Shown here: one piece after another, positions 3,501 through 30,261 of the stretch
How positions within the stretch are numbered: position 1 is the stretch's first letter
How the letters are laid out: every line of letters starts with the position of its first letter
Origin: Candidatus Saccharimonadia bacterium
GTDB lineage: Bacteria; Patescibacteriota; Saccharimonadia; Saccharimonadales; UBA4665
Assembly (NCBI GenBank): GCA_035480695.1
Contig: DATIHM010000063.1
Span: 1 to 43,403 of the forward strand
Direction: 5' to 3'
Length of the DNA: 43,403 nucleotides
Position numbers and translations under genes: made by a program
The notes under the pieces: model-generated
Seen by the model: the letters and a program-made list of their open reading frames with translations, nothing else
Told to the model about the DNA's origin: nothing
The model's database searches: none

Positions 3501-3585
3501 TTCCGGCCTCGAATTTACTCTTCTAGCATAACCTGTATAACAGGGGTTTGGCAAGGAGTTATTTGACTTTGTTTTCCACAGTTTT

Positions 3586-5623: not shown

Positions 5624-5687
5624 TACCAAACAGTATACCAAAGTCGCCTTAAAGCCATTCTACAGAGCTGCAAAAGTGTCAAAGCTC

Positions 5688-6809: not shown

Positions 6810-6856
6810 GATACCTTTATCTCGGCTTTGCTGTTAATTTTTTTGTTGACATCTTA

Positions 6857-6885
6857 ACTTTAGAAAACCGCAAGCGGTTTGTCAA
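6857..6885 (-). promoter_or_regulatory. Sigma70-like promoter for 5688-6809, with a terminator-like hairpin of the upstream gene in its spacer
   Basis: On the minus strand: TTGACA (6885-6880), a 17-nt spacer, then TAAAGT (6862-6857). The spacer holds the hairpin AAACCG-CTTG-CGGTTT (6865-6880) followed by TCT. Confidence 0.45.
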
Positions 6886-6900
6886 ATATAAAAAGTATAT

Positions 6901-7971: not shown

Positions 7972-7999
7972 GACACTCTCATCGCGGTTAAGTATAGCA

Positions 8000-8575
8000 T
8001 CACTTCCATTGCCAGGAGTCGGCAATGGTGCGGTAATCGGTGCCGAGTTCCCGGTTATTCAGCGCTGCTGTCAAGCTGACTGAGGCCACGTCCCCGTCGT
8101 GGGCCATGAATCCGGTATATTCTGAGCCGTCCTGACTTTTGGAAAAGACCAGCGCGTCATTCGAGTCGGACTCTTTATATATTGTCGGGTGCAGGCGCCT
8201 GAAGTTTACACCGGAATCATTGACCAAAGTACCTCTATATATAGTTATGACTGCATCTTTTACCGCCCGATCGGTGCTGTCGACGGTTGCCAGTCTGATG
8301 TCTTCAAGGTCATTGCCGCTTTTTTGGGTGCTGATTACCACGTAGGTGGCGGGATATCTGAAGCTGACTGATTTCCCTTCGTAAGTCTTTGGGCTGGGAG
8401 CATTTTTTTGCTTTTCGGGTTTCGGCGGAGTAATAGTGCCGTAAGCCGGCGAATCTAGGCTGTGCACGATAGACGCGACCAGGACTGCCACTACCAGGAA
8501 GCCGGCCGTGAACCCGACCGTCCTTGGGTTGCGCTTCACGAAACCCAACGCGTTTTGCCTCCACTTACGGCCCAT
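8000..8575 (-). CDS. N-terminally TM-anchored extracytoplasmic protein, function unknown
   Basis: Basic N-terminus plus TM VGFTAGFLVVAVLVASIV, then a roughly 140-aa domain. GAAAGG SD. Starts 39 nt after the metK stop with no hairpin in between. Confidence 0.8.
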   Translation of the reverse strand: MGRKWRQNALGFVKRNPRTVGFTAGFLVVAVLVASIVHSLDSPAYGTITPPKPEKQKNAPSPKTYEGKSVSFRYPATYVVISTQKSGNDLEDIRLATVDSTDRAVKDAVITIYRGTLVNDSGVNFRRLHPTIYKESDSNDALVFSKSQDGSEYTGFMAHDGDVASVSLTAALNNRELGTDYRTIADSWQWK

Positions 8576-8614: not shown

Positions 8615-9760
8615 TTACTTGGCGACCTGTTCCCAGGGCAGTTCGGCTTTGCCGAAATGGCCGTAGGCGCTGGTCTGGCCGTAAATCGGGCGGCGCAAAT
8701 CCAGCCCGTCGCAGATGCCTTTCACGGAAGTGTCAAGCAGCTTGTCTTTGAAGGCATGCAGCTCTTTGTCGCTGGCTTTTGACGTACCGAATGTGTGGAT
8801 GGTCTGCATGAGTGGCGTCGGGCGGCCGATGACGTACGCCAGGCCGACTTCGCACTTATCGGCCATGCCGGCCGCCACGATGTTCTTGGCGATGTAGCGG
8901 GCAGCGTAGGCGCCGCTGCGGTCTACTTTGGATGGGTCTTTGCCACTAAAGGCGCCGCCGCCGACGCGAGCATAGCCGCCGTAGGTGTCAACCACGATCT
9001 TACGGCCGGTCAGTCCGGCGTCACTCTCCGGGCCTGGAATATGCCACAAACCAGTGCCGTTGATGATGATGCTATCGCCCTTGGGTAAATCGAACTTGTA
9101 GCGCTGCAGCACGGGTGTCACGATTTTGGCGATGGCGTCGGCACGGACCTGCTCGGCTAGCACCTTTTCGTCGTGCGCCACGGCCAGCACAAGCTTTTCG
9201 ACTGCGACCGGCCGGCCGTCTTTGTAGCTGACGGTCACCTGCGCCTTGCCATCCGGGCGCAACCACTCGAGGTCTTTGCTTTCGCGGGCTTCGTCGATGC
9301 GACGAGACAGGGCATGGGCCAGCGCAATCGGCAACGGCATCAGCTCAGGCGTTTCGTTGCAAGCGAAACCGAACATCATACCCTGGTCGCCGGCGCCGAG
9401 CGTGCTGTCGTCCTGGTCGACTCCCATGGCGATTTCCGGTGACTGTTGGTGCACGTCGTTAGAAAATTCGGATTCGTCACTGAAGCCCCAAGCCGGCACG
9501 GTGTAGCCGAGCTGGCGGACTTTATCGCGGGCGATCTCTTCGAAATTAAGTTTGGCTTTGGTTTTGATTTCGCCGAACAGTGCGATGCGGTTGGCGCCAG
9601 CAACCGTCTCGATGCCGGTGCGGCTGTTCGGGTCCTGTGCCAGGGCGGCGTCGACGATGGCGTCGCTGATAGCATCGCAGATCTTGTCGGGGTGTCCAGA
9701 GCACACTGACTCGCTAGTGAAGTAATCCAAAAAGTCCCAAACCAATTTTGAGTCTGCCAC
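8615..9760 (-). CDS. metK: S-adenosylmethionine synthetase
   Basis: Hallmark motifs FTSESVCSGHPDKICD, GAGDQGMMFGFA and GGGAFSGKDPSKVDRSGAY. I moved the start from 9853 to GTG 9760 (AAAGGA about 8 nt upstream) because 9761-9853 is riboswitch RNA. Confidence 0.95.
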   Translation of the reverse strand: MADSKLVWDFLDYFTSESVCSGHPDKICDAISDAIVDAALAQDPNSRTGIETVAGANRIALFGEIKTKAKLNFEEIARDKVRQLGYTVPAWGFSDESEFSNDVHQQSPEIAMGVDQDDSTLGAGDQGMMFGFACNETPELMPLPIALAHALSRRIDEARESKDLEWLRPDGKAQVTVSYKDGRPVAVEKLVLAVAHDEKVLAEQVRADAIAKIVTPVLQRYKFDLPKGDSIIINGTGLWHIPGPESDAGLTGRKIVVDTYGGYARVGGGAFSGKDPSKVDRSGAYAARYIAKNIVAAGMADKCEVGLAYVIGRPTPLMQTIHTFGTSKASDKELHAFKDKLLDTSVKGICDGLDLRRPIYGQTSAYGHFGKAELPWEQVAK

Positions 9761-9915
9761 GAAAAAATCCTTTCTACTTAATAGCGCGGAAAGGATTTGA
9801 CACGTCAATATCTTCCCCGCACCGCGGGCTAGATGTAGCACCTTGCGCCCCATGGGCCAGGTTGCCGGCGGTTCAACGAGCTAGTTCTCTCCCCGCACTC
9901 TTCATATCCCGATTG
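9761..9915 (-). ncRNA. SAM-I (S-box) riboswitch with an SD-sequestering, terminator-like expression platform
   Basis: The minus-strand RNA is GGGAUAUGAAGAGUGCGGGGAGAGAACUAGCUCGUUGAACCGCCGGCAACCUGGCCCAUGGGGCGCAAGGUGCUACAUCUAGCCCGCGGUGCGGGGAAGAUAUUG. It shows the S-box core: a P1 stem AUAU/AUAU flanked by GAAGAG and GAAGAU, a P2 stem with a GGAGAGA/UUGAA k-turn, CGGCAACC, GGUGCUACAUC, a CCCGC-GGU-GCGGG P4 hairpin, and CUAG (loop) versus CUAG (J3/4) for the pseudoknot. It is followed by AAAUCCUUUC, a 14-nt loop, GAAAGGAUUU, then UUUC and the GTG start. Confidence 0.8.
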
Positions 9916-11675: not shown

Positions 11676-11749
11676 TGGGGATTGGCCAAGTGGTAAGGCA
11701 ACGGGTTCTGGTCCCGTGATCGGGGGTTCGAATCCCTCATCCCCAGCCA
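11676..11749 (+). tRNA. tRNA-Gln (anticodon CUG), CCA encoded
   Basis: The sequence is TGGGGAT TG GCC AAGTGGTAA GGC A ACGGG TTCTGGT CCCGT GATCG GGGGG TTCGAAT CCCTC ATCCCCA G CCA. The 7-bp acceptor stem is perfect. The D-arm GCCAAGYGGTAAGGC is as in the E. coli tRNA-Gln sequence I recall. GGTATAAT lies about 12 nt upstream. Confidence 0.92.
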
Positions 11750-13166: not shown

Positions 13167-14978
13167 TTAAGTTCCGTAGTTACTGAGCAACCTGCTAAGG
13201 TCAAAGATGTTGACTACTCCGTCGCTGTTAAAGTCTTCTGGAAGGCCTGAGCCAGATTGCTGCCAGTGGTTCAGGAAGGTGGAGAGGTCAAAGATGTTGA
13301 CATGGCCGTCACCGTTCAGGTCGCCGATGACTCCACTGCCCGTGGTGCTTACCGCGACGTTGCAGACTGTGTGGGATCCGCTGGAGTCAATGATTGCCCA
13401 GTTGTTTAGGTTTGTTACAGATGCTTGCTCGGTCCTAAAGGCATAGTTGGTAGCCAAATTGACTGGTGTGCCTCCGGCAGGCGTGACTACCACGCTGTAG
13501 GTATGGGCTGGGATATTGACGGTTAGCTTGAAGTGATAGCTGGTGCCGGCAGTGTAGGGGACGGAGGCGTCGGCAGTGTAAGTGCCGGCATTTACTGCAT
13601 CGATAACCCCGGTGCCTTCAAAAGCCACAATAGCGGCCAGATTGGTATAAGCGCTGGCGGCCCCATTGCTCAAGCCGGTGACGGCATTTATGCCATTGGC
13701 GCTGGGAGTGGCATCGAAGTCAAAAGTAAAGCTGCCGGTTTGGTTGGTTATGGAATTGTTTTGCCAAGATGCGGAAGCTGTGGAGCAGTTACCGCCAGAC
13801 ACTTGGTACTCATAAGCCCCGATGTCATAGGCACTGCCTTGGGGGCGGGTGGTGCCGGCTTTGTCGGTAGTGGCATAGGGAACTGTGGTGCCGTTGTCGA
13901 TGGCCAGTGAGCCCGCCGCCAAGCGGTAGTCACCGGTGCCGGCGTTGACGAAGCCGCCGCTGGCTGCGGTCTGATTACTGCTGCCGCAATTGGCCGCGGT
14001 AGCACCACCATTAGCGTCATGAATAAACATGTTGTGGTCGCAAACCAGGCCAGAGACAGATCCACCGCTGAAAGGCAGGCTGACAATATTGTTGCGCAAC
14101 GTGACATTAGTTGATGCGCCAAAGTCGATGTCCGTACCGCCATTAGAGTTGTACGGCTGGGCGTTGATAATGGTGTTGTTGTAGATCTCAACGTTGGTCG
14201 AGAAACGCACAACTATACCCCAGGCAGCCGTGTTCTGGCCATCTATGACGTTATTGTAAATCTTGGCGCCATTAGTTCCCGGATAGTGATAGAACTGAAT
14301 ACCGGCGCCGTGGCCGCCCTCAATGGTATTGCCGCTGATGTTGATGTTCTTGTTACCGTAGGAGACATAGATACCATGGAAATTAGCTGGCGGTGAATTA
14401 TAAGTGCCGGTATTGAGGATAAAGTTATTAGAGAGGGTGTCATTAGTCGAGTAGGTAGTGCAGGTGCCGGGGGAAACGTCAGTACAGCCGACTCCGCCAA
14501 TCCAGATGCCGGTGCCAGGGTAGTTCTGTATCGTGAGGCCGTTGACGGTCGTATAGCTTATGCCGTTGAATCCGTTGATAAACGGATCGTTGCTGATGTT
14601 CTGGCCGTCAAAGACCGGCGTCTCGCCTGGGTAGTTGGTGAAGGTGATGGGACTAGTCGAGGTTCCGCTAGGTGCCGGCCAATTGATATTCTCTTGGCCG
14701 GTGTAAGTGCCGCCCCTGGCATACAGGGTATCCCCGGGCTGTAACAGTGTGGCGGCATGAGCGATTGTTTTGCAGGGCGATGCCAGACTGCAAGCACTGC
14801 TATCTGAGCCGGTAGGGGTGATGTAGTAGCTGGTGCCCGTAGCAGCATGCGATAGCACCAAAAAATACGAGCCGATCCCCGCAAAGATTATGGCAGCAAG
14901 CAAACGCTGAATATGTGAGGAGCGGCTATTATATAGGCTACGTGAGTGGCTGGCGGTTTTCGCAATAAGGTGTTTCAT
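13167..14978 (-). CDS. Secreted right-handed parallel beta-helix (pectate-lyase fold) protein with a lectin-like region and a C-terminal type-I dockerin
   Basis: The ORF is 13167-15014. ATG 14978 is preferred because TATAAT at 15006-15001 lies downstream of the first ATG. TM/signal LLAAIIFAGIGSYFLVLSHA. Repeated NN.I.N / GI.. beta-helix rungs (ISGNTIEGGHGAGIQFY, IYNNVIDG, IYNNTIIN, LRNNIV). The C-terminus is DLNGDGHVNIFDLSTFLNHWQQ..DFNSDGVVNIFDLSRLLSNYG, two dockerin Ca-binding segments. Confidence 0.85.
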   Translation of the reverse strand: MKHLIAKTASHSRSLYNSRSSHIQRLLAAIIFAGIGSYFLVLSHAATGTSYYITPTGSDSSACSLASPCKTIAHAATLLQPGDTLYARGGTYTGQENINWPAPSGTSTSPITFTNYPGETPVFDGQNISNDPFINGFNGISYTTVNGLTIQNYPGTGIWIGGVGCTDVSPGTCTTYSTNDTLSNNFILNTGTYNSPPANFHGIYVSYGNKNINISGNTIEGGHGAGIQFYHYPGTNGAKIYNNVIDGQNTAAWGIVVRFSTNVEIYNNTIINAQPYNSNGGTDIDFGASTNVTLRNNIVSLPFSGGSVSGLVCDHNMFIHDANGGATAANCGSSNQTAASGGFVNAGTGDYRLAAGSLAIDNGTTVPYATTDKAGTTRPQGSAYDIGAYEYQVSGGNCSTASASWQNNSITNQTGSFTFDFDATPSANGINAVTGLSNGAASAYTNLAAIVAFEGTGVIDAVNAGTYTADASVPYTAGTSYHFKLTVNIPAHTYSVVVTPAGGTPVNLATNYAFRTEQASVTNLNNWAIIDSSGSHTVCNVAVSTTGSGVIGDLNGDGHVNIFDLSTFLNHWQQSGSGLPEDFNSDGVVNIFDLSRLLSNYGT

Positions 14979-15113
14979 TTGAAGTTGGAGTCTACGCCTA
15001 ATTATATGCCGCAATGCTTCAATTTAAACATTATTGTGGAAACGCATCTAGCATAATGCGCCTCCCGCGGCCTAGTTTCTTGGTTCGTCTTGGGGTATAA
15101 TTTACTGCCGTAA

Positions 15114-15186
15114 TGAGAATTGGCCAAGTGGTAAGGCAACGGGTTCTGGTCTCGTGATCGGGGGTTCGAATCCCTCATCCCCAGCC
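15114..15186 (+). tRNA. Second tRNA-Gln(CUG)-like copy, probably a pseudo-tRNA or att-site remnant
   Basis: Positions 15119-15186 match 11681-11748 at 67 of 68 nt. The 5' acceptor strand is TGAGAAT, giving two A-C mismatches against ATCCCCA. The anticodon stem has a G-U pair. The 3' end reads GCCG, not GCCA. It also has GGTATAAT about 13 nt upstream. Confidence 0.6.
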
Positions 15187-20044: not shown

Positions 20045-20428
20045 TCACTTAGCCAGCAGCCAGGCCAGCGCCTCTTCCCGCGTGTTAAAGACTTTTGTGG
20101 TGTCGTTTTTGTCAAGCGCCAACAGAATGCCCTTGGCAACCTCGGCGTGCGGCGCGTTACACAGCGCCAGCTTGTCGTATTCCAACGTTTCTAAAAAGCT
20201 GAGCGCCGCCTTATCGGAAGCGATGGAGTAGCCGGTTTGGCGGCTCATATCTATGAGGCCAAGCAGCGGTTTATGCGCAGCCTTCAGCTGTTTGATAATC
20301 GGTTGGGCCTCATCGTAAAGCTTGGCGAAAGTCTGCGGTGTCTGTTCGCCCACGATCAAGGCCTCCACGAACCCCTGCGGGCGGCGGATGACCTGGTTTT
20401 CGGCCGGTTCCTGGCTGTCTTCTGGCAT
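20045..20428 (-). CDS. STAS/SpoIIAA-like (STAS_2, DUF3478-type) protein
   Basis: LGLIDMSRQTGYSIASDKAALSFLETLEYDKLALCNAPH...FNTREEALAWL follows the SpoIIAA-like pattern. It starts 1 nt after the receiver gene's stop. Confidence 0.65.
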   Translation of the reverse strand: MPEDSQEPAENQVIRRPQGFVEALIVGEQTPQTFAKLYDEAQPIIKQLKAAHKPLLGLIDMSRQTGYSIASDKAALSFLETLEYDKLALCNAPHAEVAKGILLALDKNDTTKVFNTREEALAWLLAK

Positions 20429-20429
20429 C

Positions 20430-20873
20430 TTACGGTTGGTTTGGCGGCGCTTCGAGCGAAACGCTTTCTTTTTGGTCGGTCGGTTTCAAAATATTGTCGA
20501 CAAGCTGGTCAATCTGGTCATTGGACAGGTTAGCCTTGACGGCGTAACCCTCGATGCCGTTTTCGCGTAATCCCGACGGCGCGTCGGCTTCGTTCAGGTT
20601 AGAAATGACAAGTACCTTGGTGTCTTTGCCCCAATCGCTAGCGCGCATTACTTGCAGGATCTGGTCGCCGGCCAGCTTCGGCAGCATTAGGTCGAGCAAC
20701 ACCAGGCTGGGCCGCTCCTTTTCGATAAGTGCAAGGGCCTGGATGCCTTCGGTAGCGACGAAACAGATGTAGCCGAGTGCTTCAAGACGGGTCTTGTAAA
20801 TGTCGGCGAGCGCGGCGTCGTCCTCAACGATGACGATTTTGGCCCACGAGCCGTATTGTGATTGCTGGTCCAT
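20430..20873 (-). CDS. Single-domain response-regulator receiver (CheY-like)
   Basis: KIVIVEDD, phospho-acceptor context SLVLLDLMLP, VLVISN, GYAVKA (conserved Lys). There is no output domain. Confidence 0.88.
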   Translation of the reverse strand: MDQQSQYGSWAKIVIVEDDAALADIYKTRLEALGYICFVATEGIQALALIEKERPSLVLLDLMLPKLAGDQILQVMRASDWGKDTKVLVISNLNEADAPSGLRENGIEGYAVKANLSNDQIDQLVDNILKPTDQKESVSLEAPPNQP

Positions 20874-20921
20874 AAGGCAATATTAATACACTTGCCCCGG
20901 TTTTGCCTAGTTGGAGTTGGA

Positions 20922-23111
20922 TTATCTCTTGGCGGCGACGCGCTTCGAGCGGGTTTTCAGCTTGGGGGTGCTGGTTGTTTTCGGCTTGACCGTCGTGGCT
21001 GTCGTCGTCTTCTTAGCGGCCGATGCGGCTTTCCGAAGGCGCGTCGTCTTCACAGCGGTCGGCTTGGTCGCACTGGACTTAGCGGCTTCGCGGCGCACTG
21101 GGGTGACGCCATCTTCTTTCGCGATGGCCGGCTTGGAGTGTCTCAGCGTGACTTTGTCGCTTTTTGCCCTCTTGCCTATTGACCAATTTGCCGATTTGCC
21201 AGAATTGACCGGCTCGCCTCCGTCGGCCTCTGAAGCTTTAACCGCTTTTCGCAGGTGGACTTTGGCCCGGATCTTACGGCTTTCGGGACGTACGGCGCGG
21301 ACGGCTTTACTACCGACATGCCTTACCTTAGTCGGATGGTTAGTGCCCCCGTCTTCGTGTTCTTTGTTACCGTCCTCAGGCTCGCCGGTTTTGCGGTGCC
21401 GAATTTCCGGTTTTGGTTGATGCTTACGGGTGGGTTTGCCTCTGCTGGCAGTCCGGGCTATTGGTGAGCCGCCCGTATCGGCTTCCGCAGGGGCGGCACT
21501 GGCGGCTCCGCCCGTCAGCTGGGCCACCTTTTCGCTGCCACTCACGTCGGCGGCACCGCCCGGCGCGTGGTAGACACCATCAGGGCCAAGCGTTTCCGGT
21601 ACTTGTGTGCCGTTCGAATAGTAAACCGTGTGGCCGACAATTCTAGTAGGAATCACTGGTGCTGGCTGTGGTGATTGCTGCATGTTTGCCGGCGCGTTTC
21701 CGCTGCTGTGAAGCTGAGATGCTGAGGCCGGGCTTGCGCTACTTGAACCGCCTGAAGAATGGTGCTGAGATGAGCTACTTGAAGAATGATGAGAGGTACT
21801 CGGCACAGGTGCACCGTTGTGTGCTGTCTGATTAGGCGCTGGAGCTGACGATGAACCGCCGGTGTTGGCAGAGGCCGCAGTCGCACCCGGTTGGGAGCGA
21901 TTCTCGTGGTGGTTGGAATTGTGAGGTTGCCGCGCGTGATGGGCGTCGTGGCCTTGGGCAACTTCGGCTTGTGCCATGTGCGTTTTAGTGTGGTCCGGCT
22001 GGTCGCCCTTCTTTGTACGGTGATCCGGAGTGCCCGACGGCGCCTGGGCATATATATTCGGAGTAGTTGGGGTAGTCGAGCCGCGGGTGGCTGAGGTTGT
22101 TGATGGGTGATTGTCGCCTCCGCCTCCTAAGAATGCCACGGCGACAGTAGCAGCGGCCACGGCTGTGATTGCGCCGATTGCATTACGCTTGCCGTGGGTG
22201 TGTTCTTCTTCGTCGGTTTTGTCTGCCCTGCTCAGTTTGTTTCGCCGTGAATCAAGTGCGATTACCGGAACAGCTTGCCCCCTGGCTTCCATTCGTTCGC
22301 GGGCAACGCGAGCGCCCCTTTCGCTAGCAGATTCATTACGAGGACGCGTTGCGGCTGGCTGTTGTATGGCCTGCTGCCGGCGCCACCGCTCTTCCCTTTC
22401 CATTGCCTCAATTGTTGCCGGGCTAACGTGCGGAAGCTCGCCGCGACCGAATGCTGCCCGTGCCTCTGTAGCAGATTTAAAATCCGTAATAATAGCCGCG
22501 CGTTGGCGACGTGGCCCTCTATACTCTTCGGCAGATGGGGCAGCCTTTTCAGCAACAGGTGTGGACTGGTCACGCTCATCGGCATCTTGAACAAAATCCG
22601 GCACGAATTCTTCCGTAGGCTGGTCCACACTTGATTCGCTCTCAGGCTCAGCTTCCGGCTCTGTTTCCGGCTCGATAAACTGGGTTTCCTCGGCGCCTGC
22701 ACCGGTGTAAATCGGAGCCGGCTTTGGGCGCTGCGGCTCAAAAAAGAAGGAATCTTCCTCATAATCGCCGGTTTCCATGTCACCAAAAAGCGGGCTAGGC
22801 TCAGGCTGACGCACAGTATCTCTGGGTTGTGGTGCCGGCTGCTCTTCCTGCAAGATATATCGCATCGTAGAATGGCCGACTAGACTTTCCGCGTTGACTC
22901 GACTGCCAACGGCGCCGACAACTTCTTCAGGCGTAAGGTGAACCGAAAATTTACGAGCAGCTGGTGTGGGCTCAGAGACTGGTTGAGCTGGCGGTTCTAC
23001 CGCAGAGATAGGCTGAGGTTCAACTGCGTGAGTAACCTCAGGAGCGGGATTTAGGGCGTGGTAAGGCGCCGTTATCCTACGTATGTAATCGCCCGCGTCT
23101 TCTGCTGCCAT
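20922..23111 (-). CDS. 729-aa bitopic, largely disordered protein: acidic/Pro-rich N-terminal half, one TM segment, His/Ser-rich and Lys-rich C-terminal half
   Basis: Single long ORF. Central TM AIGAITAVAAATVAVAFLGGGG. N-terminal EPETEPEAEPESE. His/Ser tracts HDAHHARQPHNSNHHENRS and SHHSSSSSSQHHSS. Lys-rich end KKTTTATTVKPKTTSTPKLKTRSKRVAAKR. The alternative-frame ORFs inside it are shadows. Confidence 0.75.
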   Translation of the reverse strand: MAAEDAGDYIRRITAPYHALNPAPEVTHAVEPQPISAVEPPAQPVSEPTPAARKFSVHLTPEEVVGAVGSRVNAESLVGHSTMRYILQEEQPAPQPRDTVRQPEPSPLFGDMETGDYEEDSFFFEPQRPKPAPIYTGAGAEETQFIEPETEPEAEPESESSVDQPTEEFVPDFVQDADERDQSTPVAEKAAPSAEEYRGPRRQRAAIITDFKSATEARAAFGRGELPHVSPATIEAMEREERWRRQQAIQQPAATRPRNESASERGARVARERMEARGQAVPVIALDSRRNKLSRADKTDEEEHTHGKRNAIGAITAVAAATVAVAFLGGGGDNHPSTTSATRGSTTPTTPNIYAQAPSGTPDHRTKKGDQPDHTKTHMAQAEVAQGHDAHHARQPHNSNHHENRSQPGATAASANTGGSSSAPAPNQTAHNGAPVPSTSHHSSSSSSQHHSSGGSSSASPASASQLHSSGNAPANMQQSPQPAPVIPTRIVGHTVYYSNGTQVPETLGPDGVYHAPGGAADVSGSEKVAQLTGGAASAAPAEADTGGSPIARTASRGKPTRKHQPKPEIRHRKTGEPEDGNKEHEDGGTNHPTKVRHVGSKAVRAVRPESRKIRAKVHLRKAVKASEADGGEPVNSGKSANWSIGKRAKSDKVTLRHSKPAIAKEDGVTPVRREAAKSSATKPTAVKTTRLRKAASAAKKTTTATTVKPKTTSTPKLKTRSKRVAAKR

Positions 23112-23228
23112 CTATCAATAGCTCCTCAATCTCAGATGTGCGCCTATTTAAACAAGCAAGTTTAAGATTGTCAAGATTTAATGTTATTTAATTGCATCAA
23201 ATCCCAATTTAATGTATGGTCAATCATT

Positions 23229-24125
23229 ATGAGCGAGGTTTTTCCAGAGGGAACAGTTCATCATGAAGAGGAGCAGGCTCCGGCACAGCCACGGCTAGAG
23301 TTAAGCGGTGGTAAGTCCCGGGGTAAGCGAAGCTTCCGCCCCCGGCTGCCAGGTGCTGAAAAGCGTGCAGCCAAACGCGCTAACAAACCTCCGCGTACGT
23401 TCAAGCAAAAGGCTAGGATTGGCGGAGCAATAGCAATTGCTGTGACAGGCGTCGGGGCTTATGCTTATTTCGACATCAAGGACCAGCTCAACGAAAGCCA
23501 CCAGCAGACTGAACTGCTCAAGCAACAGAATGCATACGAAAGCGCTATCGGCGCGGCCAGCATGCAAGCATCCAACATATTTGACACCTGGATGAAGGCT
23601 CCGGCCGGGAGCGCCAACGCCTCAACCTGTGCCGAACATGAGTACGTATTGTCGGCTGGTACCGTAGTGGACAAGCAGCCTACGCCGGTCCGCGTCATGG
23701 TAGGCGAAGAGTTGAAGACAAACATCGCTTATACGATAACCTCTGGTGAACAAGCTATCGTCCGCTCCATGCTCGTTTATAAAAATAGCAGCAACCCTAA
23801 CGCCCATCAGCTGGGCGCCTTCGTGGACAAGCCCGCTGCAGGCGTTTCAGAAGGCAGTGCTCTTGAGGTTAAACAAGGTGCCCCACAAACCGCAAACCGT
23901 GTTGCCCGCGCCTTCGGCTGGATAGACCTGACGGAGGCAAAGACGAACGGTAATGCAACACCTTTGAGACTCCCGAATGGTCCCAATCATGATGGCGGAG
24001 AAGTGAGTTGTCCATGGACAACTCATGGCCAACCGACAGTCAACGGTGAACTCGCCGCTTGGTCAGTTATCGTACCTGAAATAGACGAAACCGATTTAGG
24101 CGCAATCCAGCAAGCAATCAAATAA
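23229..24125 (+). CDS. Bitopic orphan protein (basic N-terminus, TM, about 210-aa extracytoplasmic domain)
   Basis: The ORF is 23181-24125. ATG 23229 (MSEVFPEG) is preferred. TM IGGAIAIAVTGVGAYAYF. No motif recognised. Confidence 0.75.
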   Translation: MSEVFPEGTVHHEEEQAPAQPRLELSGGKSRGKRSFRPRLPGAEKRAAKRANKPPRTFKQKARIGGAIAIAVTGVGAYAYFDIKDQLNESHQQTELLKQQNAYESAIGAASMQASNIFDTWMKAPAGSANASTCAEHEYVLSAGTVVDKQPTPVRVMVGEELKTNIAYTITSGEQAIVRSMLVYKNSSNPNAHQLGAFVDKPAAGVSEGSALEVKQGAPQTANRVARAFGWIDLTEAKTNGNATPLRLPNGPNHDGGEVSCPWTTHGQPTVNGELAAWSVIVPEIDETDLGAIQQAIK

Positions 24126-24335
24126 ACCCAATGTATTTTTTGAAAAAACTTGACTAAGTTTTCTTAATAGCTTTATTATTGGCTTAGATTATTGTGTGGC
24201 ACGAGGTCATAACAGGTGGGCAAATGCCCTCCTGTTATGCAATAAGCCCTTGTTTATTGCATATAACCGGTTAATCTCTTAACACAAAAACCTCCAAATG
24301 TTGAACCTTTTAAGAAAGGTGCAGGTTTTATATCT

Positions 24336-25349
24336 ATGGAAGCAAAGACTTTCAAAAGTGGTGGCATTGTCGCAGCCTGTGTTGCTGGAGCACTGTTTGT
24401 GGCAAGCGAAGTTAATAGCTGTGGGCCTAACATAGCCATTCCCGACCTGACCGGCCCCTTGACAGAGCAGCAGGTTCAAAAACAGTTCAGCGGCCAAGTC
24501 AACGAATTCTCTTTCCCCAACACAATCAATGGACCGCGGGCTGAAGCGCAGGGTTATTCGGCCGTTAAGGTAGCTAGCACATCTCATATACCCGTTCTAG
24601 GTTTCTTTTATAACCACACCATAGGCCCTTTCGCCGGTGAGTCAGCTTGGGCAATCCGCAAAGGCACTATCGGCTTGGATGTGCCGGCATCGGCAGTGAC
24701 GGATAAGCGCCCTTACAATCTGCCAGGTTCAACCACGAAAGACCCTAAAATCGGACTTCAGGTAACGATTGACATCGACAAAGCTCACACATTTATCCAA
24801 GACCCGAAAACGGTCAACTCCAATGCCAGCGAAGGCATAGTTGCCCGAGAAGCGAATGTAATAACCGATAACGGCGACGAAGGCCGTAATGCCTCCAGCA
24901 TCATAGGTTTGACCGATGCTAATACCCGAGACGATTGCGTACGAAGTGACTTCTACCGGGTACTCGCCCCGGTGCTTTCCAAGAATATCGGCAGGATACT
25001 CTGGTTCGCTTACCAGTCGGACCGGGATGCCATTCATGGCCTTCTTAACACACCCGATTTAGTGCGCCAAAGGGAGCTAGCTATCAATCCCGTACGAGTT
25101 ATCCTTATCCACGATAATGAAACTCCCACGGACCCTCAAAGCTACAAAGCAATCTATTCCAACCAGACCCAACAAGCTATCGTTGGCAACCTGGCCCATG
25201 AGCTGGGTGCTAAAAAGAGCGACATAAGCACCGACACTAAACAAGAAGATTGTAACCTGACTAACAAGGCTGCCACTCAAGCTGCCCAGCTTGCGGGTAG
25301 CTACCAGAAGGCTACCGGCCAGACGCCTATTAAATCACCGGAGACATAG
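24336..25349 (+). CDS. Signal-anchored or secreted orphan protein (337 aa)
   Basis: N-terminal hydrophobic segment GGIVAACVAGALFVASEVNSCG (possibly a lipoprotein-like Cys). No motif recognised. Confidence 0.75.
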   Translation: MEAKTFKSGGIVAACVAGALFVASEVNSCGPNIAIPDLTGPLTEQQVQKQFSGQVNEFSFPNTINGPRAEAQGYSAVKVASTSHIPVLGFFYNHTIGPFAGESAWAIRKGTIGLDVPASAVTDKRPYNLPGSTTKDPKIGLQVTIDIDKAHTFIQDPKTVNSNASEGIVAREANVITDNGDEGRNASSIIGLTDANTRDDCVRSDFYRVLAPVLSKNIGRILWFAYQSDRDAIHGLLNTPDLVRQRELAINPVRVILIHDNETPTDPQSYKAIYSNQTQQAIVGNLAHELGAKKSDISTDTKQEDCNLTNKAATQAAQLAGSYQKATGQTPIKSPET

Positions 25350-25358
25350 GAAGTACAG

Positions 25359-26951
25359 ATGAGTTTTACTGCCCGAAACCCTGAAAACATCGCCGAAGGT
25401 GGACAGGTCGTGGACTTGTTCGACCCTGACGGTGCGGGCACAGCCGCCGCTAGAGCACCACGACTTGGTCCTGAGGACCAATTTGTCGTAAACATGGCCA
25501 TACAGCGCCACGTGCTAGAGCCAATGGGCACTAAAATCCAATCCGCGCCATTCTACCAAGTTAAAGGCCAGTTCGGTGAGCATGTTGGCAACCTTACAGC
25601 AATCTATGGCCACCACCTCTCACGCACTCCGACTGAGACTGACCAGCAATATGAAACACGCCTTGAAGGGCTTATCGCCAACTACGTCGATACTTATGAG
25701 AAAGACAAGACACTTCGTAGCTTACCTGCTGACGAAAAATCAAGGGTAATAGATTATGCCGAAGGGAACCAACCGGGTTTTGCAGATAGCTACATGGATT
25801 ATGACATATCAACGAGGACCCGTTCGCTTGACGCCGGTTTCAACCGCATAGCAGGCGAAGACCAGCTGCAGCTTAGCCAAGAAGACCTCAAGCAGGCCAA
25901 AGAAGTCGGCCGCATAGCCGCGGAGCTTTGGCTTAAGCAACGTATAGCTCAGCGCGGAGCGGCTAATTTTGCAAGCGGGCGTTCCCAAGACGAAATAAAG
26001 GCTCACCAGGCCAGCGAAACAGGCGTCTTCATCAGGAGCGCCGCAAACGAACACGGCGAAATCGACCCAGTTTATCCCGATGCTGCCGCCATCCATGTGC
26101 TTGACACGTATGCCGGCCACCAGTATGACCCGAAATCAGTCGACGCCACCGTTCCCACAGAGGTCTACATGGAAACGCTTTGGGATGAGATACAGCATGT
26201 CCACACCAAAAGTTCGACAAGCAGCGAGCCAGAACCTGAAGCGCCCGTCGTTGGGCCGGCAGCCATGGAAGCTGTGCAAGAGCCACAACCCGTCGCTGCT
26301 AAGCCGCTTGTCCCCGAAACTGTAGAAGACCCAGCTGATTTATCCGTCGAAGGCGATGAGGTTGAAGCCGAATACGATGATGAAGAAACGGAAGCTGATG
26401 CCAATAAAAAAATAATGCTTCTGGAATGGGCTGACTCAGAACATTACCCGGATGCTCCGCTCGAATACCGCAACTTCATGAAGCGTATGGCCGAGCTAGC
26501 CTCTGACCCTGGGGTGGCCGGCACCAGAGAAGTCCTACACAATTTTGACCACCATCTGAAGGATGCTACCAATAATGCCTGGGAGCGCCTGGAAAACGAA
26601 GCACTTTATTTCATCAGGCTTTATTTCGTTATGGCAGTAACCAAACTATATCCTGATTCCAGCCACCAAGAGCTGGTCCAACATATCAAGGACGACGAAC
26701 TGTATGCTGGTCTCGACGCAGACGGCCCCGACAACCCGCATCGCCCCCATGATGTAAACGGAAACTTCAAAACCATATTGTCCCGGTTCAAGGGCAAAAA
26801 GCAGGCGGCCGATGAACTTACTAGCTACTTCAACCAATTCCTGACTCGCAACAAAAAGGATAGCTTTACCGGCCCTTACATATTGAACCACCCTTCCGTC
26901 ATCAAATACTTGAATGCTTTCCATCGACAAACTGAGGAGGATGCAACATAA
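25359..26951 (+). CDS. Orphan soluble protein with a central acidic linker (530 aa)
   Basis: Starts 9 nt after the preceding stop. No TM segment. Acidic tract EDPADLSVEGDEVEAEYDDEETEAD. No motif recognised. Confidence 0.75.
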   Translation: MSFTARNPENIAEGGQVVDLFDPDGAGTAAARAPRLGPEDQFVVNMAIQRHVLEPMGTKIQSAPFYQVKGQFGEHVGNLTAIYGHHLSRTPTETDQQYETRLEGLIANYVDTYEKDKTLRSLPADEKSRVIDYAEGNQPGFADSYMDYDISTRTRSLDAGFNRIAGEDQLQLSQEDLKQAKEVGRIAAELWLKQRIAQRGAANFASGRSQDEIKAHQASETGVFIRSAANEHGEIDPVYPDAAAIHVLDTYAGHQYDPKSVDATVPTEVYMETLWDEIQHVHTKSSTSSEPEPEAPVVGPAAMEAVQEPQPVAAKPLVPETVEDPADLSVEGDEVEAEYDDEETEADANKKIMLLEWADSEHYPDAPLEYRNFMKRMAELASDPGVAGTREVLHNFDHHLKDATNNAWERLENEALYFIRLYFVMAVTKLYPDSSHQELVQHIKDDELYAGLDADGPDNPHRPHDVNGNFKTILSRFKGKKQAADELTSYFNQFLTRNKKDSFTGPYILNHPSVIKYLNAFHRQTEEDAT

Positions 26952-26979
26952 GGCCATGAGGGTAAAAGGAGGGTAAAAA

Positions 26980-29900
26980 ATGGGTCCTGAACAACTAACT
27001 CAAGATTTAGCTGACTTGGAGCGGGCCAGACAAAAAGCTCTTGACCCGTCGCTGACGGACACGCTTGGCTATATGGCAGGCAAACACGGCAAAAGGGTAG
27101 CTATGGTAACTGCCGCGTCAACGCTGGCGCTGGCTACTGAAGGCTGTGGCATCATCGACGGTGGTGGCAGCAACACGCCAATCAAAGCCAACGTCGCGCC
27201 AACCGTCGCTCAAGCCCAACCCAAATTGACTGATGCTCAGAAGGCTCAGGCTTACGAGAAAGCACACGGCTTCCAGGCCGATGGCACTCCCGCAACGACT
27301 ACGACTGGCAGCACGACGACCACCACTACCGAAGCTACCCCCTCAACACTTCCAACCACACCCGAAACAACCTCTACAGCCACAGCACCGAGCCAGACTC
27401 CTTCGCCATCAACGCCGTCCGCCGGGGCCACAGCCTCTGTTGCCAAAATAAAAGCCGGCAAAAAAAATGCACCCACCACCGGTAAGAAAAATCCGAAAGA
27501 CATCAAGAAAGCTGTTGCGTCAATCAAAGAAGGTCGAGAAGACAAGGGTTCCGACAGCGGAGAAAAAGATGAAGGTGACGCTAAAGCATTTGTTGCGCGC
27601 CGTTCAGAGCGCAATGAAGACAAGGGCAGTGACAATGGTGAGAAAGAAGCCACTATTCACAAACTGAAGCGCGGGAAAAGCAGCGGCGAGCCCGAAGACC
27701 GTGGGCGTGACACTAACGAAAAAGAAGAAGGCTCAAGCGGAGTTGACCGCGAAACAGAAGATGGTCGTGGCAGCGATAAGGAAACCGGCGAACCATCGGC
27801 TCCACACCAACCAGCTGCGCCAGGCAGTTCCAGCACCTCAGGCAGCCGCACGACAACGAGTCCCAGCCAGCCCCAGCCGAAACCACAGCCCTCCCCCACA
27901 ATCAGCCGCAATACAGCACCGTCTGGTGGCTCGCGGGTCACTAGCATCTTGAACACGACGGTCGGGAAAGCCGGGGGCACGGTGTGGGCATCTTCCGAAA
28001 AGGCTATCGCGCTTGGCAGCCAGACCGATCTTTCTCACGAGGTCCGTGACACACTAGAGCTCAACCATTGGTCTTGGCAGGACGCCAGGCACCTGAAACC
28101 AAACACGCCGCTCAAAGTGCCCTATTATTCGGAGGCTTCGGCCCAAAACACGGCCGGCGGCGAATCCAGTGAAGACGGCGGCGGATCCGAGCAGGAACCG
28201 GGCGAGAACTCGCCCGCCGCGTCAGGCAGCACCTCCAAAGCATCACCCGACACACCAGCTACGCCCGACCAGTCACAGCCGCCCGCGGCGACGGGCACGG
28301 TGGCGCCTTCAGCTCCAGCACCCAAGACGACGACACACCCCAACCAGGCACCGCACAAGCCTCACGCCAAGCCACATGCAAAACCACACAGCAAACATCA
28401 CGCTAAGCCCCACTCCGCGCATACACATGCTACCCCACGCATCAACGGAGTGAGTTTCTACGATTGGCAGAGTGGCGACACCAACAACCAGACAACCGTT
28501 GATGACGATGGCATAACGCCAAGTCCTACCGGCAGCCCAGACCACCAAAGCTCGACTTCTTACGCTGACGGCCGGTTGTCAGCTGAGCAAACCGCCTACA
28601 TCGCGCTCAACCCTGGCTGGGCCGCCGCACATGGCCTCGTCCTAGGTGATGTTGGTAAGCTCACCTACAAAGGCAAGTCTATATTCGTGGTATACGGCGA
28701 CAATCATGTCGGCGACACACCGCACGCTGAAATTTCCGTCAAGGCAGTACAGGAATTGGCCGGACACGAAGATAACCTGACGGGCGTACATTACACTATT
28801 TACCCAGGAACGCACAACAAGCTGCACAACTCGGTCAACCAGAGCCTGATTAACAAAATCGGGGCCTGGGCATCAGGCGCCGGTAATGTGAAGCATCGAA
28901 AACACCGCTCTAGCCCAAAGCATCACTCCAGTCATCCTTCGCATCCGGGTAGGTTCACTGTTTCGCGTAAAATCGCAACTAAAGTGACCACGAACCACAA
29001 CAGCATCTGGGGCATTTCACAGCAGGTCGGCTTGGGCAATAATTCAAAAAACCGTTCTAGATTGCAAAAAGATTTCCTAAAATGGGGCAACATTTACCAT
29101 GTCCCGCCTAACGTCTTAGCGGCCGGCCTTTACGAGGAAAATTTTGTTAGCGAGGCAGGAGGCGGAAATAATATAAACGGCCAAGAGGTTGGTAATGGCC
29201 CGTGGAAGAATATATCCGGCTCCTTCAGCACGTCAAATACAGGAGCTAGGGGTTACGCACAGTTCGAGCCGCAAACGTGGGCGACCTATGGAGTCGACGG
29301 GAATGGTGATAGCAAGAAAGATCCTGAGAACGTTGATGATGCCATCGCCTCTGAAGCAAACCTCTATCACGCCGAGGGCGTTAATGCCAGTATACATACT
29401 AAGTCACTCAACCAGCTTGAAATGAGTGTTCGTAATGCCGCCGCCTCGTACTATGGCGACCACAATCCTACAGGCGCGTATGCCAGCAACGTTTGGCGTG
29501 TCGCTTACAACTTAACTTACAAATATCCTCAGGTGAGGGAAGTTTATGGTGCCAGCACGAAGAAGCACCATACCAGTAAAAATATAGGTGTTAAGGCTGT
29601 GACGCATGCGATAGTGCACATCGGCAACTTTAACCCATTCTCCCCCCACAAGGCCAAAGTCGCCAGAGGCCTAGGCGTCGGCGCAGTAACGAAATCCGTA
29701 GGCGGCCTGGGGCACATCAACATATTCGGCAACTCAGCGTCTGTAAGGCACGAAGCGGCTTCACACGCTAGACATGCCCATCATAAGAAGCGTCACCTCA
29801 GTGACACCAGCTTCAGGAAGGATGTCGTCAGATATGCTGAAGCCAGTACTGTCGATAGTTACGTCTGGGGCGCCGGTCACTCAACCAGCTCCATACTTTA

Positions 29901-30261
29901 CATAGCCAGCCACAAAGGCCCGAATGTTGATGCTGATTGTAGCGGCTTTGAGGCAGGTGTGGTAGCTCACGCTACAAGAGGCAAAGAAGTGATTTCAAAC
30001 ACGACCTCGACCCTGCGTTCCGACACTGTTCACTATAAGCAAATTGGCCTGCACAGTGTACAGCCAGGCAACTTCTACGAGCCAGAATCTGGCCACATCA
30101 CAATAGTAACCGGAGTCCACGGCAACCAAATCGATACGATTGCCGCCAGGACCGCTAACGCTCCGCAGCCTGACCAGGTTGGGCCCGAAACCTACACCTA
30201 CACAGGAGCTGCAGGGCAGAACTTCTACGCCTTCAAGCTGCCGCGCTCATTGATGAGCTAA
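26980..30261 (+). CDS. Membrane-anchored multidomain peptidoglycan hydrolase (1093 aa): disordered linker, DPBB/RlpA-like region, MltB/SLT_2-like lytic transglycosylase, NlpC/P60 endopeptidase
   Basis: AAGGAGGG SD. N-terminal TM VAMVTAASTLALATEGCG. T/S/P- and EDKGSD-rich region. See the three domain features below for the catalytic motifs. Confidence 0.9.
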   Translation: MGPEQLTQDLADLERARQKALDPSLTDTLGYMAGKHGKRVAMVTAASTLALATEGCGIIDGGGSNTPIKANVAPTVAQAQPKLTDAQKAQAYEKAHGFQADGTPATTTTGSTTTTTTEATPSTLPTTPETTSTATAPSQTPSPSTPSAGATASVAKIKAGKKNAPTTGKKNPKDIKKAVASIKEGREDKGSDSGEKDEGDAKAFVARRSERNEDKGSDNGEKEATIHKLKRGKSSGEPEDRGRDTNEKEEGSSGVDRETEDGRGSDKETGEPSAPHQPAAPGSSSTSGSRTTTSPSQPQPKPQPSPTISRNTAPSGGSRVTSILNTTVGKAGGTVWASSEKAIALGSQTDLSHEVRDTLELNHWSWQDARHLKPNTPLKVPYYSEASAQNTAGGESSEDGGGSEQEPGENSPAASGSTSKASPDTPATPDQSQPPAATGTVAPSAPAPKTTTHPNQAPHKPHAKPHAKPHSKHHAKPHSAHTHATPRINGVSFYDWQSGDTNNQTTVDDDGITPSPTGSPDHQSSTSYADGRLSAEQTAYIALNPGWAAAHGLVLGDVGKLTYKGKSIFVVYGDNHVGDTPHAEISVKAVQELAGHEDNLTGVHYTIYPGTHNKLHNSVNQSLINKIGAWASGAGNVKHRKHRSSPKHHSSHPSHPGRFTVSRKIATKVTTNHNSIWGISQQVGLGNNSKNRSRLQKDFLKWGNIYHVPPNVLAAGLYEENFVSEAGGGNNINGQEVGNGPWKNISGSFSTSNTGARGYAQFEPQTWATYGVDGNGDSKKDPENVDDAIASEANLYHAEGVNASIHTKSLNQLEMSVRNAAASYYGDHNPTGAYASNVWRVAYNLTYKYPQVREVYGASTKKHHTSKNIGVKAVTHAIVHIGNFNPFSPHKAKVARGLGVGAVTKSVGGLGHINIFGNSASVRHEAASHARHAHHKKRHLSDTSFRKDVVRYAEASTVDSYVWGAGHSTSSILYIASHKGPNVDADCSGFEAGVVAHATRGKEVISNTTSTLRSDTVHYKQIGLHSVQPGNFYEPESGHITIVTGVHGNQIDTIAARTANAPQPDQVGPETYTYTGAAGQNFYAFKLPRSLMS
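28575..28810 (+). other. Possible double-psi beta-barrel (RlpA/3D-like) domain within the hydrolase
   Basis: AYIALNPGWAAAHGLVLGDVGKLTYKGKSIFVVYGDNHVGDTPHAEISVKAVQELAG resembles the ..G..v.V.v.D.gp......iDLS..a...L pattern of DPBB lytic domains. The match is weak and by eye only. Confidence 0.35.
28990..29520 (+). other. Lytic transglycosylase domain (MltB / SLT_2-like)
   Basis: LAAGLYEENFVSEAGGG supplies a candidate catalytic Glu. GARGYAQFEPQTWATYGVDGNGDSKKDPENVDDAIASEANLY matches the G.mQF.P.TW..YGVDg.GDG..d..n..DAi.saAnYL signature. Confidence 0.75.
29815..30240 (+). other. NlpC/P60 cysteine peptidase domain
   Basis: YVWGAGHS...DADCSGFEAGVV (catalytic Cys), PGNFYEPESGHITIVTG (catalytic His), TIAART. 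Confidence 0.8.

Follow-up and report, generated by a model that had tools for sequence, protein, structure and literature searches.

A candidate cell-wall-opening gene module of Saccharimonadia-type bacteria encoded apart from type IV secretion genes

The window analyzed here is a 43,403-nt stretch of DNA from a Candidatus Saccharimonadia bacterium (GenBank assembly GCA_035480695.1, contig DATIHM010000063.1). Between positions 20045 and 30261, it carries seven open reading frames (ORFs) arranged as two divergent units. The rightward unit (23229-30261) consists of four genes, the last of which encodes a 1093-amino-acid (aa) peptidoglycan hydrolase. At a probability of roughly 55%, this unit is a conserved cell-wall-opening module of Saccharimonadia-type (Patescibacteria) bacteria that is independent of a type IV secretion system (T4SS). 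The four-gene unit probably belongs to an ultrasmall epibiotic bacterium and is likely related to, but separate from, the T4SS locus of Saccharimonadia; it is rare and its gene order is conserved. A sequence-only reading of the same DNA had earlier proposed either a decayed transfer locus or a different apparatus built from unknown parts. The features of the rightward unit are as follows.

23112-23228, no strand: divergent intergenic region, AT-rich, 117 nt, 30.8% GC
23229-24125, plus strand: module gene 1, a 298-aa bitopic protein (ORF; one HMMER relative)
24126-24335, no strand: gap between gene 1 and gene 2, AT-rich, 210 nt, 34.8% GC
24336-25349, plus strand: module gene 2, a 337-aa signal-anchored protein (seven distant relatives)
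25359-26951, plus strand: module gene 3, a 530-aa strongly acidic protein (ORF)
26980-30261, plus strand: module gene 4, a 1093-aa tethered multi-domain peptidoglycan hydrolase (ORF, Pfam, homology)
26980-28443, plus strand: hydrolase aa 1-488, made up of a tail of ~40 aa, an Ala/Thr-rich hydrophobic segment (aa 40-59), and a linker of ~430 aa
28444-28884, plus strand: hydrolase aa 489-635, GH75-like (chitosanase-like) domain (homology to Saccharimonadia-type proteins)
29014-29538, plus strand: hydrolase aa ~679-853, SLT_2-type lytic transglycosylase (PF13406, PDB, homology)
29815-30198, plus strand: hydrolase aa 946-1073, Cys/His domain, probably NlpC/P60 (C40)-like (motifs, homology)

The layout of the block is well defined. 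An ORF check of the window found all seven ORFs where the sequence-only reading had placed them, and its intergenic gaps (210, 9, and 28 nt between the four rightward genes) and AT-rich divergent region were matched exactly. An independent gene caller made identical calls on identical contigs (NCBI GCA_964603425.1; Logan). The GC content of the block (54.1%) equals that of the whole window (54.1%). A promoter-like site lies at 24150-24179 inside the gap between genes 1 and 2 (a consensus match only). Immediately 5' of the hydrolase start codon, at 26958-26978, an 11-nt tandem repeat, GAGGGTAAAAG, is present in 1.9 copies and doubles a Shine-Dalgarno-like GGAGGG before the hydrolase gene. Scans of the block for tandem repeats and terminators otherwise returned nothing of note.

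The window carries no sign of a transfer apparatus. No VirB4-like sequence was found in it by tblastn with a Saccharimonadales VirB4, and no ATPase, relaxase, integrase, or phage family was found in the scanned window ORFs (Pfam on larger ORFs, and a gene table). Thus, tblastn, Pfam, and the gene table agree with the earlier statement that the window lacks VirB4/VirD4-like ATPases, relaxases, integrases, and phage structural genes. The block is flanked by a glyoxalase-family gene, DUF1697, and MarR and RRM genes, and none of dnaA, dnaN, and recF was found in the window flanks (Pfam on larger ORFs plus the gene table of the identical contig).

The hydrolase is the best characterized product of the module. 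Its hydrophobic anchor is weak (Kyte-Doolittle score (KD) 1.37), and the linker that follows is disordered, of low complexity, and rich in S, T, P, and charged residues. The GH75-like domain at aa 489-635 shows 51-68% identity to 16 Saccharimonadia-type proteins; the full range of identity to relatives is 47-68%, with 59-68% for 15 of the 17. Several of these relatives carry the source names Saccharimonadia or Saccharimonadales. Some of them match PF07335 (GH75), the best at E=9.4e-10 and another at 1.2e-7; the window's own copy gave no Pfam match. A scan of genome contigs with this domain returned four loci only, none of them from the window's own genome. The lytic transglycosylase (LT) that the sequence-only reading had recognized in the 1093-aa protein is borne out by a Pfam match to PF13406 SLT_2 at aa 749-808 (E=1.3e-9) and by MltB-type matches among PDB sequences. 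Aa 489-853, which span the GH75-like and LT domains, share 42% identity with the protein P0002. Furthermore, the LT domain shares 35% identity (E=3e-12) with a Streptomyces plasmid protein annotated as a bifunctional lytic transglycosylase/C40 peptidase, whose gene adjoins an FtsK/SpoIIIE gene.

The C-terminal domain of the hydrolase is probably an NlpC/P60 (C40)-like peptidase, as judged by its motifs. It shares 29% identity with the C-terminus of P0003 and 36% with that of L015_781, a hydrolase from one of the related loci described below. In an alignment of three homologues, DCSG, a His, and APQPDQVGP are invariant, and hhalign matches the pattern YxWGxG...DCSG...H to the catalytic motifs found in the C40 domain of the plasmid protein, at E=0.021. 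The homologous C-terminus of L015_781 gives a sub-threshold NLPC_P60 match (E=0.0019). No Pfam match to NlpC/P60 was obtained for the window's domain even at E<=10, nor any PDB profile match. An AlphaFold2 (AF2) model of this domain was too poor to use (pLDDT 38), and Foldseek returned noise with some CHAP/NlpC entries at E>=0.15. The NlpC/P60 peptidase named in the sequence-only reading is therefore backed by motif alignment and not by Pfam or PDB detection. The three-domain hydrolase that it described stands with a GH75-like domain as the third domain beside SLT_2, and with NlpC/P60 assigned by motif only.

Where do the closest relatives of the catalytic head reside? Nine contexts of GH75-like-domain relatives could be read and all of them were T4SS loci beside recF-dnaN, with dnaA visible in several. 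Seven contexts (L003, L004, L005, L008, L009, L011, and L012) were read from gene tables or ORFs, and two (L006 and L013) are duplicate or overlapping copies. The order of the locus is TrbL_3 (VirB6-like), PrgI (VirB3-like), TraC-like, VirB4-like ATPase, a variable ~1000-aa protein, hydrolase, a ~470-aa protein, recF, dnaN, and dnaA; this order is a composite, as some genes are not visible on individual contigs. The hydrolases P0002 and P0003 are encoded just downstream of virB4 in such loci. The ~1000-aa protein between virB4 and the hydrolase is highly variable (patchy 27-42% identity among T4SS loci) and has no Pfam match, and the ~470-aa protein downstream of the hydrolase gives weak WD40/beta-propeller matches. 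The one core protein that was aligned, TraC-like, is 73-84% identical across T4SS loci, and a VirB4 fragment is 92% identical between two loci. The tetranucleotide composition of the window correlates with that of the T4SS loci L005, L009, L011, and L012 (r=0.88-0.92), and L005 and L009 come from metagenome-assembled genomes titled Saccharimonadales. On this basis, the DNA most likely derives from a Saccharimonadales genome of soil type with a GC content of ~54%.

The locus beside recF-dnaN is the chromosomal T4SS locus already described for Saccharimonadales and other Patescibacteria (Quinonero-Coronel et al. 2025, PMC12102498; Wang et al. 2023, PMC10633639). The T4SS of these bacteria lies near the replication origin and lacks a relaxase, and the epibiotic growth of Southlakia epibionticum requires the peptidase and lysozyme homologues that are encoded downstream of virB4 (10.1101/2025.01.22.634366; PMC12857230; PMC10633639). 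The sequence-only reading had tied the window's hydrolase to those of conjugative type IV systems. The tie is real and can be made more specific, as the catalytic head is that of the hydrolase from the Saccharimonadales chromosomal T4SS locus. It had also considered that relatives might hold the same hydrolase inside an ordinary T4SS; this was found for the catalytic head and not for the rest of the four-gene unit.

The N-terminus of the hydrolase points in another direction. When the first 75 residues of the window hydrolase were used in a phmmer search, three module hydrolases from the related loci (L015, L017, and L018) ranked 1-3 of 20. The chance of such an ordering was computed as ~1 in 1140, and no single E-value in that search was significant. 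The other 17 ranked hydrolases are hydrolase-domain relatives, and the nine with known contexts are all T4SS-locus hydrolases. The T4SS-locus hydrolases begin with a classical signal peptide and pass at once to the GH75-like domain, whereas in the window enzyme and the three module hydrolases, a tail of 40-60 aa leads into an Ala/Thr-rich hydrophobic segment and then into a long linker. Because its N-terminus ranks with module hydrolases while its head matches T4SS-locus hydrolases, the window hydrolase looks from its sequence like a chimera, with a tail, membrane segment, and linker of module type and a catalytic head of T4SS type. The shared head suggests that the module and the T4SS cut the same kind of wall.

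The three genes upstream of the hydrolase are far more obscure. The sequence-only reading had recognized no motif in them, and searches of Pfam, NCBIfam, PHROG, PADLOC, and PDB sequences were all empty for genes 1-3, as were searches of the PDB sequences with the alignment profiles A3, A1, and A4. In the gene 1 product, a basic N-terminal tail precedes a weak hydrophobic segment at ~aa 64-83 (KD 1.54), and the outer domain of ~215 aa contains two conserved Cys. Among 1.84 billion representatives searched with HMMER, its sole relative was P0024 (28% identity, E=3.4e-11; 27%, 1e-18 in a second comparison). Gene 1 also matches L022_236 (E=9e-5), which in turn matches L020_223 (E=9e-15), and relatives of gene 1 hold the same position in three related loci (L017, L020, and L022). 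A TraC-like/TrsD protein of T4SS loci was considered as a gene 1 relative and rejected (hhalign E=0.31).

The gene 2 product has a clear hydrophobic anchor and an outer domain of ~300 aa with two conserved Cys (alignment A3). The anchors in the sequence-only reading are thus clear in the 337-aa protein and weaker in the 298-aa protein and the hydrolase. Gene 2 has seven relatives (23-28% identity, E 3.6e-22 to 7.6e-5; HMMER, 1.84 billion representatives). P0027 was the only protein besides the window's own that a profile word search with the gene 2 alignment recovered, and a related-locus search with a four-sequence alignment returned one short metagenome locus and no viral locus. Comparison of structure models had been proposed in the sequence-only reading, and an AF2 model of gene 2 was built from an eight-sequence alignment (pLDDT 65, pTM 0.59). 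It gave no Foldseek match in the PDB (best E=0.44, TM<=0.11) or BFVD. Judged from this model, either the fold is new or the model is inadequate.

The gene 3 product fits the earlier description of an acidic soluble protein, with a net charge of -42 and no hydrophobic segment. A word search of 5.8 billion sequences and a full HMMER search of 1.84 billion representatives each returned only the protein itself. By sequence comparison, gene 3 is a true orphan. Genes 1 and 2 are two clearly new protein families and gene 3 adds an orphan, which makes two, possibly three, new families without a Pfam model or recognizable fold.

Conserved synteny, which had been put forward as a check on the sequence-only reading, was found. 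The gene order of the module recurs upstream of a tethered peptidoglycan hydrolase in six other metagenomic loci from different samples, and none of these loci contains T4SS genes. Their products, in order, are listed below.

L015/L016: 272-aa protein; gene 2 homologue; acidic 323-aa protein; 781-aa hydrolase with Phage_lysozyme2 and NLPC_P60-like domains
L018: gene 2 homologue; acidic 292-aa protein; 624-aa hydrolase with LysM-like and Phage_lysozyme2 domains
L021: gene 2 homologue; acidic 247-aa protein; contig end
L020: gene 1 homologue; gene 2 homologue; CHAP-domain protein of 729 aa, acidic at the N-terminus and with a membrane segment
L022: gene 1 homologue; gene 2 homologue; protein truncated at the contig end, acidic at the N-terminus and with a hydrophobic segment
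L017: bitopic disordered 345-aa protein (opposite strand); gene 1 homologue; acidic 578-aa protein; 779-aa hydrolase with Phage_lysozyme2 and M23-like domains

In every context with readable downstream sequence, a hydrolase gene follows the gene 2 relative directly or after one further gene, or else the contig ends after the acidic gene or region. The products at position 3 are all acidic (net charge -15 to -53) and lack hydrophobic segments. They are soluble proteins in L015, L017, L018, and L021, and those of L015, L018, and L021 form one family, to which the 578-aa protein of L017 is similar in a C-terminal motif only (E=0.1). In L020, the acidic region is fused to the N-terminus of the hydrolase, and in L022 it is probably fused to the downstream gene. 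The catalytic domains are shuffled among loci (C40-like, CHAP, M23-like, SLT_2, and Phage_lysozyme2), and the GH75-like domain was found in none of the module hydrolases of other lineages. The module proteins diverge very fast; they are 20-40% identical among loci, as compared with 73-84% for the TraC-like protein of T4SS loci.

The surroundings of the six relative loci contain no T4SS families. Their flanks hold housekeeping and envelope genes, e.g., argS, mscL, sortase, and glycosyltransferases. In L015, the region upstream of the module (1802-6369) encodes a protein with Big_7 and polysaccharide deacetylase domains, a 61-aa LPxTG-type sortase substrate, a sortase, and a chitin-synthase-like glycosyltransferase; it is an envelope-building neighborhood. 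On a 2.4-kb contig, the gene 2 homologue P0027 is encoded directly downstream of a RelB/YafQ-like toxin-antitoxin pair (L014 419-944). The same two samples yielded both the T4SS locus L012/L013 and the module locus L015/L016, which are similar in composition, and the T4SS and the module may coexist in one organism. The module is read as T4SS-independent because its flanks lack T4SS families and the profiles of genes 1-3 gave no match in T4SS loci.

How might the module work? The predicted topology places the products of genes 1 and 2 as bitopic proteins, each with a disulfide-type outer domain that has two conserved Cys outside the membrane, the position 3 product as an acidic soluble protein, and the hydrolase as a tethered enzyme. 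One model based on this topology is that the four products would form one membrane complex. Outside the membrane, the products of genes 1 and 2 would hold the catalytic head in place or gate it, and the product of gene 3 would bind the cytoplasmic tail of the hydrolase. An action of the acidic protein on that tail is suggested because the acidic region is part of the hydrolase itself in L020 and probably of the downstream gene product in L022. The complex would then open peptidoglycan locally at the cell surface. Its target might be the host wall at the contact between epibiont and host, or the bacterium's own wall during growth or budding. The fast divergence of the module together with the swapping of heads leans toward an interface exposed to the host, with a role at the own wall as the alternative.

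Several points weigh against this model. The support consists of conserved synteny and membrane topology, from which the complex and its function are deduced. The view is limited to the window, and a T4SS elsewhere in the genome could use the hydrolase in trans. The family is tiny, with ~8 loci that are mostly on short contigs, and the absence of T4SS genes over >5 kb holds only for the window, L015, and L017. The correspondence among loci is incomplete, as the 272-aa protein at position 1 of L015 has no similarity to gene 1, L017 has no gene 2, and gene 3 resembles the acidic family of L015, L018, and L021 in a C-terminal motif only, at a non-significant hhalign E=0.25. Finally, the C40 assignment of the hydrolase C-terminus is sub-threshold.

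The use of the hydrolase in trans can be developed into an explanation of its own, which is possible although unlikely. The hydrolase would be a VirB1-like wall-breaching enzyme encoded away from virB4, a part of a dispersed T4SS, and genes 1-3 would be lineage-specific surface or assembly factors of that system. The likeness of the catalytic head to P0002 and of the C-terminal domain to P0003, both encoded beside virB4, fits this explanation, as do the T4SS settings of nine of nine contexts of GH75-like-domain relatives. VirB1 homologues in Patescibacteria are also often not adjacent to virB4 (10.1101/2025.01.22.634366). However, the canonical loci already have a hydrolase of their own, and the module loci of other lineages bear different catalytic heads and no GH75-like domain. 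Homologues of genes 1-3 were seen in no T4SS locus, and the difference in identity between the TraC-like and module proteins points to different selective regimes. An antibacterial effector with immunity proteins is a distinctly improbable explanation. Here, the hydrolase would be a weapon against the walls of competitors or hosts, and gene 1, gene 2, or both would shield the wall of the producer. Domain shuffling and fast partner divergence are typical of effector-immunity pairs, such as the amidase and muramidase effectors of T6SS and T7SS (the type VI and type VII secretion systems), and both are seen in the module, where all of the partner proteins diverge very quickly. However, a membrane segment at the N-terminus keeps the hydrolase tethered instead of letting it leave through a dedicated secretion system, genes for secretion or delivery are lacking, and three partner genes, one of them cytoplasmic, exceed the needs of immunity.

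The remaining two explanations deny the module a function as a unit. The hydrolase could be a housekeeping autolysin that happens to lie beside unrelated orphans, with a synteny that has no functional meaning. Orphans abound in these genomes and the hydrolase alone would account for the annotation, but this explanation is very doubtful in view of the gene 2 relatives, which keep their place upstream of a hydrolase (or a contig end) despite 20-28% identity and different flanks, and of the gene 1 relatives, which keep their position in three loci. The decayed conjugative element or T4SS remnant of the sequence-only reading, which would have kept a hydrolase and a few unrecognizable genes, draws on the combination of LT and C40 domains typical of Gram-positive and actinobacterial conjugation hydrolases and on the lack of an ATPase in the window. 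Decay is hard to reconcile with four intact, tightly spaced ORFs, a gene order that is kept in the six other loci without T4SS genes, and a block GC content equal to that of the window. Furthermore, no integrase, relaxase, or repeat boundaries were found, and phage, plasmid, and viral collections contained no relatives beyond the LT domain. A remnant is therefore extremely improbable. The conserved synteny and topology agree better with the other proposal of the sequence-only reading, a different apparatus made of unknown parts, and support it in part; they do not amount to an envelope-spanning machine.

The leftward unit lies on the other side of the divergent intergenic region and encodes three proteins.

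20922-23111, minus strand: bitopic protein of 729 aa, disordered for the most part, whose membrane segment (aa 310-332) is a clear anchor
20430-20873, minus strand: stand-alone receiver (PF00072 E=2.6e-16, aa 13-115 of 147) with no output domain
20045-20428, minus strand: STAS/SpoIIAA-like protein (PF11964, 22.9 bits against a cutoff of 25)

Pfam, NCBIfam, PHROG, and PADLOC gave no match to the 729-aa protein. Two loci have a protein of the same architecture beside the module, a divergent one of 345 aa in L017 and a convergent one of 267 aa in L020, and no sequence similarity to either was found. The 729-aa protein may be a fifth, loosely associated component of the module. The receiver is as the sequence-only reading described it and gives weak cross-matches only in PHROGs and PADLOC. 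The STAS-like protein of that reading is a plausible assignment given its SpoIIAA-like match, which falls under the cutoff. The receiver gene is absent from the flanks of L015 and L017, and receiver and STAS genes were seen beside the module only in the window. These two genes are neighbors outside the conserved unit. Thus, from the leftward genes that had been grouped with the block, the bitopic disordered protein recurs by architecture and the receiver and STAS genes are not conserved.

Other parts of the window hold features of separate interest. The left edge of the window truncates a gene at 3-~3480 (minus strand) that encodes a giant secreted surface protein (at least 1150 aa) and is not a transfer gene. 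The protein combines a signal peptide with repeats of two kinds, T/S/G/N-rich and Kelch-like ('NGYIY.VGG'). The plus-strand ORFs at 2377-3054 and 2973-3440 are probably shadows of it. Five co-directional genes at 3586-8575 (minus strand) encode signal-peptide proteins of 326, 360, 373, 374, and 191 aa with no Pfam match, among which the 326- and 360-aa proteins (26% identity, E=6e-10) and the 373- and 374-aa proteins (30% identity, E=0.007) are paralogue pairs. Together with the giant adhesin-like gene, they look like a second surface-protein cluster. A SAM riboswitch (9805-9910, minus strand, 54.7 bits) lies directly upstream of metK (8615-9853, minus strand). Two nearly identical tRNA-Gln(CTG) genes (11676-11749 and 15114-15186, plus strand), each with a conserved GGTATAATT box upstream, flank 3.4 kb that include a low-GC stretch (41.7% at 12-13 kb) and a 615-aa beta-helix and dockerin protein (13167-15014, minus strand). 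This 3.4-kb segment may be a duplication or an insertion.

To our knowledge, only type IV pili and the T4SS have so far been tied to the epibiotic lifestyle of ultrasmall bacteria. How these epibionts breach or remodel walls at host contact is the wider question on which the module would bear. If the module is what we propose, a second conserved hydrolase unit would be a concrete and testable candidate for the opening of the host wall or for epibiont budding. A bolder proposal, which is tentative and rather unlikely, is that the module is an undescribed surface machine that is found specifically in Saccharimonadia epibionts and does not depend on the secretion ATPase. Its tethered, swappable wall-cutting head would reach the host cell, its hypervariable partners would co-evolve with host walls, and cytoplasmic control would be exerted via the acidic protein and, in the genome of the window, possibly the adjacent receiver/STAS pair.

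Among known systems, the Saccharimonadales T4SS locus offers a close comparison. Its hydrolases have the same GH75-like domain (59-68% identity) followed by a lysozyme-type domain; the window enzyme shares its SLT_2 glycosidase with P0002 and its Cys/His C-terminus with P0003. However, the window hydrolase does not lie beside virB4, PrgI, TrbL_3, TraC-like, recF, dnaN, or dnaA, and T4SS loci lack the three genes ahead of it. Where their hydrolases have a classical signal peptide, the window enzyme has its cytoplasmic tail, followed by the weak membrane segment and the ~430-aa linker. The GH75 chitosanases (PF07335) are matched by relatives of aa 489-635, whereas the window's copy is below Pfam detection and sits in a bacterial wall hydrolase.

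CwlT, PrgK, TcpG, and TraG are conjugation hydrolases of Gram-positive bacteria and actinobacteria. In these and in the plasmid LT/C40 protein (WP_245362382.1, Streptomyces albus plasmid), an LT and a papain-like peptidase are joined in one protein, as they probably are in the window enzyme. The window enzyme departs from conjugation hydrolases in having no FtsK/TraB or VirB4/VirD4 neighbor, in its additional GH75-like domain and long linker, and in a C40 match that stays below threshold. In concept, the module would resemble FtsEX-PcsB/CwlO/RipC and SpoIID-SpoIIM-SpoIIP, in which wall hydrolases depend on dedicated membrane partners encoded alongside. The module differs from such complexes in having no ABC ATPase or permease, no homology to their partners, and partner families that lack known relatives. 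What is new here is most likely the module itself, which is undescribed, while a tethered multi-domain wall hydrolase with dedicated partners is most likely of a kind already known.

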